DNA from: Eledone cirrhosa
Lineage: Eukaryota
Assembly: GCA_964016885.1 (NCBI GenBank)
Contig: OZ024745.1
Span: forward strand, 114,328,001 to 114,392,000
Direction of reading: 5' to 3'
DNA length: 64,000 nt
Shown here: positions 19,885 to 60,185 of the stretch, in pieces
How positions within the stretch are numbered: the first letter of the stretch is position 1
Layout: every line of letters begins with the position of its first letter
Program-made: the position numbers and the translations under genes
The notes under the pieces: model-generated
The model's input: the letters and a program-made list of their open reading frames with translations, nothing else
What the model was told of the DNA's origin: nothing
Database searches by the model: none

Positions 19885-20680
19885 GCCAGCGATTGAGAAT
19901 CGTGACGTTGCAGCGGTCAAGCTTGGTCTAATTGATTTTTTATATGGTTAATTATGCTAATTGGGAGAGGAAATGGTATATATTATATCTAGTGATTCTA
20001 GAGACATGTTTTATGATATATAGCTCTGATTATTTAATTTATTAATTCTTCATTGAGCCACAACGTGACCTGTTGCAAAACACATATATATCTATGATTT
20101 TATATATATGTAAACCTTTATATGTAATAATCTCCCGTTAGGTTGAGATACAATTTGGCTATATTGGGCTGCGCTTTCTAGCAATAAGCCTACCCGCCGT
20201 AAGCAACTAATCACATCCTTTCTAACTTGACCGCTGCCACGTCACGATTCTTAGCCATTTTTGAATGTATTTTTGGCGCGATCACTTTGGAAAATTAAAT
20301 GTCTAATTTTGAGTTCACTCCTGATGAATCCGAAGCTCTGGACATTTCCTGTTATCGGATGTCTTAAAATACGGATGAAACCATGGTAGAGGTAATTTGG
20401 TATGTACGCATTTCTTCTAAGTTTGATTTTACACCTAATTCTGTTTGATTGACCGTATATCTGGTCGATTTCTACATGCTGTCGAAATGTTCGATAAATA
20501 CTCCATCGTAGCCACTGCGAAGGGGCTGCTTTCGGTTATTTGTCGGAGATTTCTTCATAGGAGCCTTTATTCTTATAGCTTGGTCTAATTGATTTTTTAT
20601 ATGGTTAATTATGCTAATTGGGAGAGGAAATGGTATATATTATATCTAGTGATTCTAAAGACATGTTTTATGATATATAT
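19885..20680 (+). mobile_element. Penelope-like terminal-repeat remnant carrying a hammerhead
   Basis: Direct repeat 19920-20020 / 20577-20680; inverted repeat 19885-19921 / 20226-20252; hammerhead at 20311-20398; 20478-20675 recurs (with an internal deletion) at 29663-29812. Confidence 0.6.
20311..20398 (+). ncRNA. Minimal type I hammerhead ribozyme motif (family H4)
   Basis: CTC-CTGATGA-ATCCG...CGGAT-GAAA-CCATGG-TA-GAG: full core, stem II with an inner GACAT/ATGTC helix, palindromic stem III; short stem I. Confidence 0.7.
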
Positions 20681-21449
20681 ATATGTGTGTGTGTGTGCGT
20701 GTGTGTGTGTGTGTGTGTGTGTGTGTGTGTGTGTGTGTGTGTGTGTGTGTGTGTGTGTGTGTGTGTGTAAGTGAGTAGCGTGTGTGTGTTTGTTTGTATG
20801 CATGAGTGTTGGTGTGTGCGCGCGTATGTGTGTGTGTGTGTGTGTGTGTGTGTGTGCTTGTGTGTATGTCGTACGTATGAGTGTCAATAAGTGAGTTTTT
20901 TCTTTCTTTTTTTTATGCTCAGGGACATAGAAATAGTCGCGCTGGATACCCGATAGCGCAGTTAAACCAGTGGGAGTGAAGAACCCCTAGCCCTTGTCAG
21001 GGCATTCTTCTAGGAGAAGGCATCTCAGGAAACTGGGTTAACTCCGACATAAAACCTGCAGCTCAGTAGTTGCCGATGATGTTGATCTTTTCTTCTTTTC
21101 GGGTTATAGCTACTGTCGCTCAGAGAGTGGGATTGGCTCAGTGCACAGTCTTTCCTCACTTTAGAAATATTCTTCACGCACAGGCATTGCACGATTGCAT
21201 TAATTAATAATTATTAATAGTGTATTATTATTATTATTATTATTACTATTATTATTGTTACTATTATTATTACTTTTTTTTTTCTTTTCCCAATTCAATG
21301 ATGTTCCAAAACAATATAAAAGAGATAATTGGCAATAAAGGTTCTGGAACAAAAGAGATAATTGGAAATAAGGGCAGTGGTCCCAGGTTATCACAGCCTG
21401 GGTCCGCTCGCCATCATGCCACTGTAATAGAGCCCAAAAAAGGCATTTA

Positions 21450-24400
21450 GTCTTGGCTGCTGGAACGTACGGACGCTGCTTGACAGGGATTCCTTGGAAC
21501 GTCCTGAACGAAGGACCGCTCTTGTTGCAAAGGAGCTTCGACGTTACGATCTTGACATCGTAGCTTTATCTGAGACGAGGTTAGCTGGAGATGGTCACCT
21601 TATAGAATTTTGTGGAGAATATACATTCTTCTGGAAAGGAAGAGATGAAGGAACCAGAAGAGAGGCTGGGGTAGCATTTGCTGTTAAGACTGTTCTTGTG
21701 AATAAATTAGAAGAATTCCCAGTAGGGCTTAGTGAGCGTCTTATGTCCATGAGAATTCCGCTGGACAAAGGAAGATATGCGACCCTGGTGAGTGTGTATG
21801 CTCCAACTATGAATTCTGTCGATGAAGAAAAAGTGTCCTTTTACCATGCCTTGAAAGGTGTTTTAAGAAATATCCCTCAGGCAGACAAAGTCATCGTGCT
21901 TGGTGACTTTAATGCTAGAGTGGGTAGGGATTTTAACTCATGGAATGTAATCGGAAGACATGGGGTGGGAAAATGTAACAACAATGGTATGCTCCTGCTG
22001 CAGATGTGTGAGGAGCTGGATCTGTGTGTTACCAACACCATGTTTCAACAAAAGAACAAATTTAAGACCACATGGATGCATCCTGCATCTAAGGAATGGC
22101 ATCTTTTGGACTACGTCCTAGTCAGGATGCGTGACAGACGGGATGTGCAGTGTGTTCGTGCTCTTCGTGGAGCTGAGTGCTGGACGGACCACTGCCTGGT
22201 ACGCGCAAAAGTGAAACTAATCACTAAACGTAAAATCCGGGCTCCTGGTGTTGCTCTGCCCAAAAGATTGAATGTTGCTCATCTTAGGGATAAAAATGTG
22301 AAGAGGACATTGGAAGAAGAGATTCAGGTTGCAGATCTTGGTGAGGATTGGCCGACCCTTAAAACGTCGGTTTATGATGTAGGCAGGCGTGTTCTGGGAT
22401 TGGTGCAGAAAATACATCAAGACTGGTTTAATGAGAATGATGAACATGTAGAAGACTTGTTGGCTGATAATAGGCGTGCTCTGTCATGCTAATTGACGGC
22501 AAAACCACAGGAGAAGTATATGTTGCATAAGGAACTCAAGGATGTGAAATCACGTGTTAGGCGGAGTCTTTCTCAGATGAAGGATCAGTGGTGGAGTGAG
22601 AAGGCTGATGAGATACAAACTGCGTCAGATTCCAATAACACAAAGCTGTTGAACAGTCTCTTGCGTGAAGGACCGTCTTCTTCTCTGGTGACACCGCTTC
22701 GCAGCAAGGATGGCAAAGAGCCTCTTCGTGACTCAGAAGGAATTCTACGAAGGTGGCGAGAGCACTTTCATGAGCTTTTGAATCAGCCGTCTGTCGTCAA
22801 TGAAGATTTCCTCAATCTCATTCCAGAAAGTCCTATGAAAGTAACTCTCGCAGAACCTCCGGCGCTTGTGGAGGTTGCAGTGGCTATCTCAAAGATAAAC
22901 AGTGGAAGGTCTCCAGGTATGGATGGCATACATGTAGAGCTCCTACAATATGGTGGTGAGAGACTTCTGCAATAATCTTCACTCTTTGTTTGGCAGGATA
23001 TGGGCTAATGAATCCGTACCTGAGGACTGGAGAGATGCAGTAATGGTGGTCTTGTACAAGGGAAAAGGTAACAGGAATGATTGTGGGAACTACAGAGGTA
23101 TATCATTGCTTTCTGTCGTAGGGAAAGTTTTATGTAGGGTGCTTCTGGACCGTCTGCTGACACACATTGCAGATTGTGTTCTTCCTGAAAGTCAATCTGG
23201 TTTTCATGCTGGACGCGGCACTACTGATATGATCTTCTCAGCTAGAGAGCTCCAGAAGTGCATGGAACAAGATTTGGATCTGTATCAGGTTTTTGTCGAT
23301 CTGACAAAAGCTTTCGGTACTGTTAACAGAAATGCATTATGGAAGGTTCTCCAGAAACTTGGTTGCCCTGATAAGTTCCTTGCTTTAGTTAGGGCTTTCC
23401 ATGTCGACATGAAGGCTTGGGTTAATGTCGGAGGTAACATGTCGGAGCCTATCTCAGTAAAAAATGGAGTGAAACAGGGGGATATTCCAGCATCGACCCT
23501 GTTTGCCATATACTTTGCAATGGTTTTCTATATTACATTCAGGAATTGCGAGCATGCTGTTTACATCCGATATCGAACCTCAGGCAGCATATTTAACATC
23601 AGGCGCTTTGCTGCAAAATAAAAGCATTTACATCAATCATAAGAGACCTCTTGTATGCAGATGATTGCGATCTTGTAGCGCACACAGAGAGTGATATACA
23701 GCACATTTTGAATGCATTTTCTGATGCTTGCACTGCCCTACGATTGACTGTCAGTCTCAATAAAACCGTCGTCATGTACTAACCTGCCCCTGGTAAGAAG
23801 TACAGTGAACCAAATATCTATGTGTATGGTAAACGACTTGGAGTGGTTAATCAGTTTGTCTACCTGGGAAGCACTGTCAATCGATACAGCAACCTTGATA
23901 ATGAAATCCCACTCAGGATTAGGAAAGCAAATGATGCTTTCAGAAAACTAGAAAGGCGACTCTGGGGTCGGCGAGACATATGCAAGAAGACTAAGTTAAA
24001 GGTGTACAAGGCATGTGTGCTCTCTTCTCTTCTTTATGCCTGCGAGACCTTTGTCACATATCGACACCACCTTAAGCAATTGGAGCGTTTCCATCAGATG
24101 TGTCTCAGACGGATCCATGGCATTCACTGGAGGGACCACATCAGTGATGTCGAGATTTTGGAAAGCTCTCTGTGTGACAGTATAGAAGCTTTTGTGCTTA
24201 AGCAACGACTCCGTTGGAGTGGTCACCTTGCCAGGATGAAGGATTCTAGAATACCAAAACAACTCTTTTATGGAGAGTTAGTTAAAGGAAAACGACCGCC
24301 ACATAAACCAAAAATGAGGTATAAGGATTCCTTGAAAGCCTCTTTGAAAGACGCTAACATCTCTGATGATACATGGGAAAATGTTGCCGCTGATCGTAAT

Positions 24401-24835
24401 AAATGGAGAAAGAGTGTATATGAGGGAAAAGTTGCCTTTGAGGTATCTCGAATCGCATACGAGAAAGTAAAGCGGGATGTGAGGAAGGGTATTGCTGTTG
24501 CATTTCCAGACGGCGAAGGTCCTTCTATGGTGCTGACATGCAGCGTCTGTGCGAGACTCTGCCTAAGCAAAGCTGGACTCGAAAGTCATCTTCGTAGTCA
24601 TAAAGTAAGACCAGTGGTTGACTACCAGGCTGCTGTTGGAGATGCTACTCATCATGCTTGCCAAGCATGTGGTAGAGATTGTAAATCAGCAGGAGGGCTC
24701 AAACGACATGCAAAAGTACATGAAGTCCAACCACAGCCGGCTATTCCCAGTGAATGTTTTGGTTGCCGACTCTGTGCAAGACATTTTAGATCATTGGCTG
24801 GGCTAAAAAGCCACATTCGATCGCAGCACTGTTAG
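21450..24835 (+). pseudogene. RTE APE-RT-3xC2H2 polyprotein, disrupted
   Basis: ORF pieces 21494-22492, 22493-22975, 22950-23621 and 23822-24835 are colinear. Stops at about 22490 and 23780; frameshifts near 22965 and 23620. Confidence 0.93.
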
Positions 24836-59992: not shown

Positions 59993-60058
59993 TATTTCAC
60001 TATATATATTTCAGGGATATCATATTAAAAATATGTTATGCCTTCTTCAGACAAAATA
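59993..60058 (-). ncRNA. Minimal type I hammerhead motif (H1; unit 59951-60098)
   Basis: Inverted, near-identical copy of 58999-59064. Confidence 0.83.
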
Positions 60059-60119
60059 CAATATAAACAGTCTTATAAATAGATAGATTCGACATACCTT
60101 TCAACTTCGACTTCTATTG

Positions 60120-60185
60120 TATTTTGTCTGAAGAAGGCATAACATATTTTTAATATGATATCCCTGAAATATATATAATGAAATA
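60120..60185 (+). ncRNA. Minimal type I hammerhead motif (H1; unit 60115-60228)
   Basis: Direct, near-identical copy of 58999-59064. Confidence 0.85.

Follow-up and report, generated by a model that had tools for sequence, protein, structure and literature searches.

In 2014, an examination of metazoan minimal hammerhead ribozymes (Cervera and De la Pena 2014, PMC4209133) described motifs of the type I fold, with a tiny palindromic helix III, that were proposed to act as dimers, and noted that solo and opposite-strand pairs of such motifs, 100-700 bp apart, derive from truncated elements; the idea of a circular template was put forward in the same work. A separate study (Craig et al. 2021) defined the Hydra clade of Penelope-like elements with a C-terminal endonuclease (EN+) by an RWK motif, a change of DKG to DKT, a CxCx5C linker, CxxC and CxH motifs around the endonuclease and the lack of CCHH, and listed in its supplement an Octopus bimaculoides element, Hydra-1_Obim, with a hammerhead and a preference for (TA)n (PMC8557442). 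The origin of the tails, pseudo-long terminal repeats (pLTRs) and inverted repeats of Penelope-like elements, and the role of their hammerheads, are still debated (PMC8557442, PMC11167929). The present analysis concerns a window of 64,000 nucleotides (nt) from the octopus Eledone cirrhosa (assembly GCA_964016885.1, contig OZ024745.1, positions 114,328,001 to 114,392,000 of the forward strand; 'the window' denotes this entire stretch), in which ten minimal hammerhead motifs are found. These are read here, at a probability of roughly 0.75, as 3' ends, each with its hammerhead, that derive from two autonomous Hydra-clade elements (families A and C) and two non-coding tandem retrozymes (families B and D), all of them pasted into (TA)n by the reverse transcriptase (RT)-endonuclease of the Hydra elements.

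An earlier note, made from the letters of the window alone, had claimed ten hammerhead motifs, and a structural descriptor found all ten at their loci. A strict form of the descriptor (stem I of at least 4 bp and a palindromic stem III) matched eight of the ten, while 200 local dinucleotide shuffles averaged 0.005 matches and never gave more than 1; the motifs at 20321 and 44317 fail it, having a stem I with just three unbroken pairs. A looser descriptor, in which the strict criteria were relaxed, matched all ten, against a mean of 0.04 over 50 shuffles, so that the comparison with dinucleotide-shuffled sequence, a check named beforehand, came out in favour of the motifs. The note had also placed them correctly in the class of minimal type I hammerheads with a palindromic stem III, had listed the stem III words as they were found (TATATA, CTAG, CCATGG and TATGTA), and had rightly seen inverted pairing, six of the ten motifs lying in three head-to-head pairs; TATGTA, which it took for an oddity of one copy, proved to be a common subfamily letter, present in 38 of 69 family-A copies. 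An Rfam scan of the window gave no hammerhead among the best 150 of its 288 matches, which are filled by microsatellite-driven microRNA matches, and a scan of four related loci gave no hammerhead match at the gathering score.

Assignment to families, made partly via sampled loci elsewhere in the same assembly (labelled L050, L102, L371 and so on), placed seven of the ten motifs in families A and C and three in B and D. The picture of 'four unrelated short non-coding families' in host units of 150-270 bp was thereby revised: A and C units in the window are 5'-truncated ends of two related coding elements of 3.7 and 4.15 kb, and B and D alone are non-coding, with units of 430-500 and 656 bp. Two further proposals gained support, namely the tie to Penelope-like RT/GIY-YIG machinery, through the open reading frames (ORFs) linked to families A and C, and the role of (TA)n as insertion target, through the (TA)n junctions of all four families.

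Families A and C are assigned, by motifs and architecture, as two autonomous Hydra-clade Penelope-like elements. Each has a single ORF, found intact elsewhere in the genome (737 amino acids in A, 891 in C); a search with protein A scored 75 copies, 63 of which carry no stop in the matched part. Over two blocks the proteins share 47% and 41% identity, and every motif of the published Hydra-clade definition (PMC8557442) is present in both: RRIRWRAF, SDKTNN, CNCRDRSKC, CDLC and CRH in A, and RRMRWKAF, ADKTNN, CNCRNPESC, CKLC and CRH in C, with CCHH absent and the cysteine motifs read by eye. CxxC and CxH flank a conserved E and N in a putative endonuclease region, where C-terminal GIY-YIG-like cores (IIY...YVG in A and LVY...YIG in C) were recognised by eye and where Atlas features matched, at 0.95, clusters with 31% GIY-YIG. 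Pfam gave nothing in a 583-residue part of protein A or in the endonuclease piece of C, a profile search of PDB sequences gave no match, and the GIY-YIG fold was absent from both structure match lists, which barely probed the endonuclease part. Telomerase RT was the best structural match (E 1.7e-9; Z 16.4) to a model of protein A with a predicted local distance difference test (pLDDT) score of 79. Among named protein relatives, the best are those of Argonauta hians, the top one at 39% identity. Between RT and endonuclease, both Hydra ORFs (L102:1030-3240; L371) carry a low-complexity insert of low model confidence, N-rich in A and longer in C. Two other identities were rejected: Naiad, because the endonuclease-like region is C-terminal rather than N-terminal, and Neptune/Nematis, because CCHH with CX2-5CxxC is not present.

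The architecture of these elements also agrees with the Hydra clade, including Hydra-1_Obim, which shares with them the single-ORF motifs, a hammerhead near the 3' end, (TA)n insertion, an optional tail on one end and inverted 5'-truncated copies (PMC8557442). Family A hammerheads form pairs 3.3-3.6 kb apart, inverted, flanking the RT-endonuclease ORFs; one hammerhead lies about 1.3 kb past the stop codon and a second in the upstream pLTR. In family C, a hammerhead lies about 1.2 kb downstream in 16 of 20 endonuclease loci, and in both families a hammerhead in the pLTR, (TA)n insertion, a tail, and tandem and inverted copies are all present. The families depart from the published clade in several respects (PMC8557442): their units (3,741-3,859 nt in A, 4,152 nt in C) exceed 3 kb because of 3' untranslated regions (UTRs) of 1.2-1.3 kb, and so do not fit the descriptive trait 'generally <3 kb'; their tails of 90-100 nt compare with 30-40 bp in Penelope-like elements generally; the published Hydra-clade hammerhead has a stem III 'acca a tggt', A and C being different families with another hammerhead; and family A has a very high copy number, whereas Hydra-1_Obim is listed without a pLTR and with four copies ending at one site.

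Families B and D, judged from their DNA, fit the genomic definition of non-LTR retrozymes. Each unit carries one type I hammerhead; B forms partial tandems and arrays, and D, which lacks a long ORF, forms tandem arrays. Like the animal non-LTR retrozymes (PMC7229834; 10.64898/2026.07.22.740005), they are non-coding, AT-rich tandems that occur beside autonomous Penelope-like elements; they differ in that their units are longer than the 170-400 nt of animal retrozymes, and in that each family shows a fixed pair of 3' junctions in (TA)n, together with inverted 5' arms. No alignment of B or D with the pLTRs of A or C was found beyond nested insertions and simple repeats. D is instead tied to its likely helper by a shared junction hairpin, rather than by overall pLTR homology as in animal retrozymes (PMC7229834; 10.64898/2026.07.22.740005), and probably uses a Hydra enzyme. 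A further non-coding tandem family, with a 528-bp unit and stem III CTAATTAG, lies at L395:6560-8000 and shows a near match to the same hairpin about 9 nt past its end. The sequence ATGCAAAT, which is taken here to be the element named 'octamer', stands 80-89 nt upstream of the core in 47 of 81 deduplicated family-B sites, truncated ones included, and 100-109 nt upstream in six of seven sites of a family-B relative; it may be a promoter element, for which the small nuclear RNA-type promoter of newt satellite 2 offers a parallel that a paper search did not confirm. Family D carries ATGCTAAT at 19954 and 20611.

The ribozyme core has evidently been retained, and conservation of its letters was among the checks proposed. 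Among 79 family-A sites picked by flank outside the core, 69 span the whole hammerhead and 59 of those have an intact core; the letters of CUGANGA other than position 7 are kept in 68-69 of the 69, and position 7 itself varies (T48 G9 A7 C5). In the customary numbering scheme of the hammerhead, position 7 is the one free letter of the core. In family B, 61 of 81 cores are intact, with T33, C31 and G1 at position 7. Across 12 aligned sequences, 96% of cells pair and seven of eight stem II pairs change on both sides, a covariation score reached by none of 500 shuffles, a control that kinship among the sequences can inflate. Stem III would cost +2.9 to +6.0 kcal/mol in a monomer and would yield -2.2 to -11.2 as a duplex between copies; the TATGTA variant retains U-G pairs, and further families in the fetched loci use other self-complementary stem III words, some with an unpaired centre. 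The kept core and the covarying stem indicate selection on the ribozyme in the source lineages, not on inserted copies, most of which appear to be dead remnants.

Additional information came from the 3' ends. In families A and C the 3' end falls at either of two sites, which lie 48-56 and 138-155 nt beyond the predicted cut, and the stretch between the two is the known Penelope-like tail. Each junction is then followed by N-CTC-loop-TYGAG-N', with N and N' paired (in A and C, A-T at the first junction and G-C at the second; in D, G-C and then T-A). In a 3,741-nt A unit the hairpin occurs only at two places, 8-9 nt past the two ends; a 4,152-nt C unit has three matches, two of them 4 nt past the ends; and the D unit has both of its matches 7 and 11 nt past its ends, against 0.13 matches per shuffled D unit and 1% of shuffles giving two. 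Because the motif was defined on A and C, D is its sole independent test. The duplicated hairpin is likely to be an RT start signal, a candidate identified from its position. Among 21 classifiable head-to-head pairs, 19 join a short end to a long one, two are short-short and none is long-long, where 45% short-plus-long would be expected from a tail frequency of 27/79 (P 2e-5); they come from 23 pairs, of which L100 was dropped (its arms belong to different families) and one was unclassifiable, and some loci were chosen as pairs, not for their ends. Priming on (TA)n by a (UA)n end formed at the cut was rejected as a mechanism, given 3' junctions 48-156 nt past the cut.

The template was approached through the 5' breaks of family B, of which about 20,000 copies were surveyed. 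No excess was found at the cut, with 166 breaks in a 4-nt window there and 223 in a control 30 nt upstream, a comparison made with one control window, not normalised, and with small deletions included. Cut linear RNA was thus rejected as the usual template, despite a small-sample hint of ends near the cut, and the template would therefore be mostly circular or uncut. Intact units within one B array differ at 0-4 of 240 nt, most comparisons between arrays giving 4-14, and one array shares variants with its own inverted arm; this homogeneity leans towards repeated copying of one unit. Together, the hairpins, the short-plus-long pairing and the lack of a B 5'-end excess fit double-strand priming from two start sites on circular or uncut RNA.

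These observations can be arranged into a replication cycle. A tandem transcript would join two hammerheads, the palindromic stem III would pair between copies and one unit would quite probably be cut out; on a balance tilted slightly in its favour, the excised unit would then be closed into a circle by a host ligase. The element protein would, with somewhat better than even confidence, bind to the hairpins, nick both strands of (TA)n and prime one complementary DNA (cDNA) per start site. Each cDNA would extend back through the cut site; cDNAs that stop early and are joined by microhomology would give short head-to-head pairs, and going round the circle would give pLTRs and tandem arrays. In its complete form (two RT start sites set by the duplicated hairpin, one complex priming both (TA)n strands on a ribozyme-made circle and so giving both tail and head-to-head repeats, and D a parasite equipped with a hammerhead and two hairpins) this scheme is put forward tentatively, at odds below even.

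A number of points weigh against these readings. Cleavage, RNA ends and circles are predictions, and monomer folding is weak: of seven motifs folded, stems I and II form cleanly in just two (38491 and 55349), and the core is mispaired in the minimum-energy fold of 46735, 59007 and 60128. Minimal hammerheads cleave poorly, dimers included (PMC4209133), and eight of nine Xenopus dimers failed to cleave (10.64898/2026.07.22.740005). The hairpin motif was defined after the fact and loosened once; with one position loosened, six of 13 long-ended sites of other families match; and family B has no junction hairpin. The B arrays L205 and L241 are as alike as units of one array, and in all 13 cases compared the 3' pLTR of an element resembles the 5' pLTR of that element more closely than does the median of other elements, yet is never the sole nearest. 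No ORF was linked directly to the 46735 subfamily. Poseidon of the green anole (PAc; Frangieh et al. 2024, PMC11167929) did not need cleavage for insertion in vitro and used its start sites alike on both strands. A tail on one of two inverted pLTRs is also known from earlier work, which offers self-priming on an antisense template as another route to head-to-head repeats (PMC3846280).

The competing explanations differ chiefly in what they take the template and the machinery to be. One holds that uncut read-through RNA is copied, that the hammerhead has another function, such as releasing the RNA from host transcripts or making the 5' end of the messenger RNA, and that tandems arise by template jumping or array copying. 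The lack of an excess of B 5' ends at the cut fits such templates as well as circles; the predicted cut of family A lies about 190 nt before the ATG; and in the anole an element with a dead hammerhead inserts equally well in vitro, and none of the RNA-seq reads end at the cut (PMC11167929). Against it stand the core kept in non-coding B, the homogeneous arrays, one of them sharing variants with its own inverted arm, and the accumulation of related invertebrate retrozymes as circles (PMC7229834). The proposal is judged unlikely, and retains what weight it has because cleavage was unneeded for the anole element in vitro (PMC11167929). The affiliation of family B is less settled: with its ends only about 55 nt apart and a distinct motif, other than the CTC...TYGAG hairpin, after each, B may possibly be moved by another Penelope-like clade or a long interspersed nuclear element (LINE), or derive from an undiscovered autonomous element, although the odds are somewhat against this. 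Its two fixed ends, (TA)n junctions, partial tandems and inverted 5' copies are a Penelope-like signature, and no shared non-B upstream sequence was seen within 100 nt before the cut at 81 sites.

Retention of the motifs by the host, for self-cleavage within an intron or a long transcript, is very improbable. The core is intact in most copies, and a transcript across a tandem array could be cut; head-to-head copies, however, cannot dimerise in one RNA because they are on opposite strands, the copies in the window appear young (five share 95-100% identity with intact elements), and the density of the window is not significantly above that of the genome. The earlier suggestion of an intron seeding self-cleavage on both strands found no footing: among 133 window ORFs of at least 55 amino acids outside repeats and LINE pieces, a weak test, no host exon was found, the one weak zinc-finger match lying inside a repeat. 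Chance matches, finally, might be aided by AT-rich simple repeats, (TA)n making up 10.7% of a window that is 33% GC, microsatellite-rich and populated by LINE pieces, and a TATATA stem III does resemble such a background; shuffles yielding 0.005-0.04 matches, a genome count of 40,820 against 75 for a reversed pattern, and covarying stems leave this with next to no likelihood.

Analyses across the 3.0-Gb assembly placed the window in context. Forty evenly spaced 10-kb stretches (400 kb), scanned with the structural descriptor, held 36 motifs, against 0-1 over five shuffle rounds, or one motif per 11 kb and about 270,000 genome-wide (bootstrap 170,000-380,000). The window, with ten motifs where 5.8 were expected (1.7 times the mean, P about 0.07-0.09), was rejected as a hotspot in view of this genome-wide density, and the 100 kb on either side hold five and four motifs; it is an ordinary sample of its genome. 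The density of 1 per 4 kb given at the outset is true for the chosen 40-kb span alone, the window as a whole having 1 per 6.4 kb. Pieces of Hydra-like ORFs were present in 11 of these 40 stretches and nowhere in the window. Among genome-wide pattern counts, the reversed pattern served as control for the TATATA-type pattern, and a looser pattern with a stem III beginning with C gave 122,893 matches against 11,446 in its control, both counts being of core matches with structure unchecked; a family-A 22-mer has 46,488 exact matches, and two short family-B patterns have 19,891 and 21,351, against 0 and 1 in controls. Printed counts of hammerheads include 126,247 in axolotl, more than 6,000 in coral and about 5,000 in mussel (PMC7229834), 2,000-9,000 minimal motifs per genome (PMC4209133) and 235 Rfam matches in giant squid (PMC6962438); the estimate here exceeds those found, a rough comparison because counting methods differ. 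Elsewhere in the assembly, an array of 14 hammerhead units with 311-bp spacing and stem III CGCG (G000:C1:1239857-1244284) is divided head to head between the two strands, five units against nine, and a family-D tandem block that repeats about every 60 kb across G000:C12:17.02-17.48 Mb suggests a large segmental repeat.

Table 1. Hammerhead-bearing element copies and related features in the window, with CUGA starts and cuts predicted from sequence.
Position	Strand	Feature	CUGA start	Predicted cut after	Identity and remarks
19920..20679	+	Family D retrozyme copy, 1.16 units of 656-bp non-coding tandem unit			96.6% to tandem array L378 over 760 bp; ends at its first 3' junction, in (TA)n
19920-20022 / 20577-20679	+	103-bp direct repeat within family D copy			
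20023..20059	+	Family D hairpin GCTC...TTGAGC, candidate start signal			7 nt past junction 1
20131..20149	+	Family D hairpin TCTC...TTGAGA, candidate start signal			11 nt past junction 2
20318..20391	+	Hammerhead D, stem III CCATGG, 3-bp stem I	20321	20388	
29650..29789	+	Additional family D fragment			No hammerhead
38084..38345	-	Family C inverted arm, short end (54 nt past cut)	38182	38138	100% to intact elements L371/L373 at their 3' end
38341..38691	+	Family C direct arm, long end with tail (156 nt past cut)	38491	38535	99.6% to L371; hairpin motif at 38596-38638
44108..44353	-	Family B inverted arm, stem III CTAG	44317	44287	
44337..44885	+	Family B partial tandem: truncated unit, then unit with hammerhead	44733	44763	
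44645-44652	+	Octamer ATGCAAAT in second unit of family B partial tandem			
46540..46858	-	Family A subfamily copy, long end	46735	46687	95% to L050; 75-79% to pLTR of intact family A elements
54384..54739	.	Family B fragments, folded back inside hammerhead			No complete core
54945..55241	.	Fragments of family B with a fold-back inside stem II			No complete core
55241..55447	+	Short-ended copy of a family A subfamily, stem III TATGTA	55349	55397	84-86% to family A pLTRs (distant subfamily); 92% to ORF-bearing L094
58962..59107	+	Family A copy, short end	59007	59056	95-97% to pLTR of L102/L106/L108 (intact family A elements)
59952..60113	-	Family A inverted arm, short end (49 nt past cut)	60050	60001	95-97% to pLTRs of intact family A elements
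60112..60314	+	Family A direct arm, long end (137 nt past cut)	60128	60177	97% to L108 (95-97% to pLTRs of intact family A elements); hairpin motif at 60234-60256

Several other features of the window were recorded beside these copies (Table 1). The family-A copy at 55241..55447 is interrupted by a 43-bp fragment of an abundant interspersed repeat (55294-55336), and a 16-bp duplication around this insert (55278-55352) repeats stem I and CUGA, the downstream hammerhead staying intact. An abundant interspersed repeat about 120-250 bp long, resembling a short interspersed nuclear element, occurs at 854-975 and at more than 20 other sites, for example 40646-41033. The 3' and 5' halves of a LINE, at 38811-39869 (+) and 46865-48600 (-), are separated by 8 kb, face opposite ways and have an overlap of about 40-50 bp; a Hydra end is found at each breakpoint, and the arrangement may reflect an inversion. 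A near-complete LINE at 21431-24835 (+), presumably RTE-like, has an APE endonuclease, RT motifs and C-terminal zinc fingers, and is interrupted by stops; a LINE 3' part with a zf-RVT domain forms a 1.1-kb inverted duplication (27025-28121 and 28561-29657); and a 510-bp inverted repeat pair, 96% identical (18588-19095 and 25751-26262), carries the weak C2H2 zinc-finger match in one frame.

With respect to novelty, the kinds of element are known, and the families appear to add new members to the Hydra clade and to the non-LTR retrozymes. The Hydra clade, an Octopus Hydra element and the solo and opposite-strand pattern of truncated hammerheads are already published. The type I fold, the tiny palindromic helix III and the proposed dimers are shared with the metazoan minimal hammerheads, whose counts of about 2,000-9,000 per genome compare with about 270,000 estimated here; the passages of that paper make no mention of Octopus or molluscs (PMC4209133). 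The invertebrates in a more recent retrozyme study are three insects and one anthozoan (10.64898/2026.07.22.740005), and the main text of a 2026 repeat annotation of Octopus vulgaris contains neither ribozymes nor the Hydra clade. PAc of the green anole (PMC11167929) likewise has two internal RT start sites downstream of its hammerhead, which define the tail, and AT-rich DNA is cut on both strands, as is proposed here; its start sites lie inside the ORF at an AC-rich stem loop, whereas the candidate sites of A and C fall within the UTR, each immediately ahead of one of the two hairpins, and the inverted pairs here would use one start site each. The duplicated hairpin, the short-plus-long pairing, the B 5'-end result and an octopus hammerhead census were not found in a literature search whose scope left out most subscription journals and Repbase.

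This genome offers a test system in which young, intact Hydra elements and tens of thousands of insertion footprints are found together with a candidate start signal short enough to be mutated or relocated, and in which the hairpin gives a direct sequence link between retrozyme D and its likely helper. At one motif per 11 kb, long transcripts cross many potential cleavage sites, a density that the requirement for a dimer may make tolerable. If the proposed scheme is true, these footprints would reveal how Penelope-like elements start insertion, and would explain both their tail and their head-to-head repeats.

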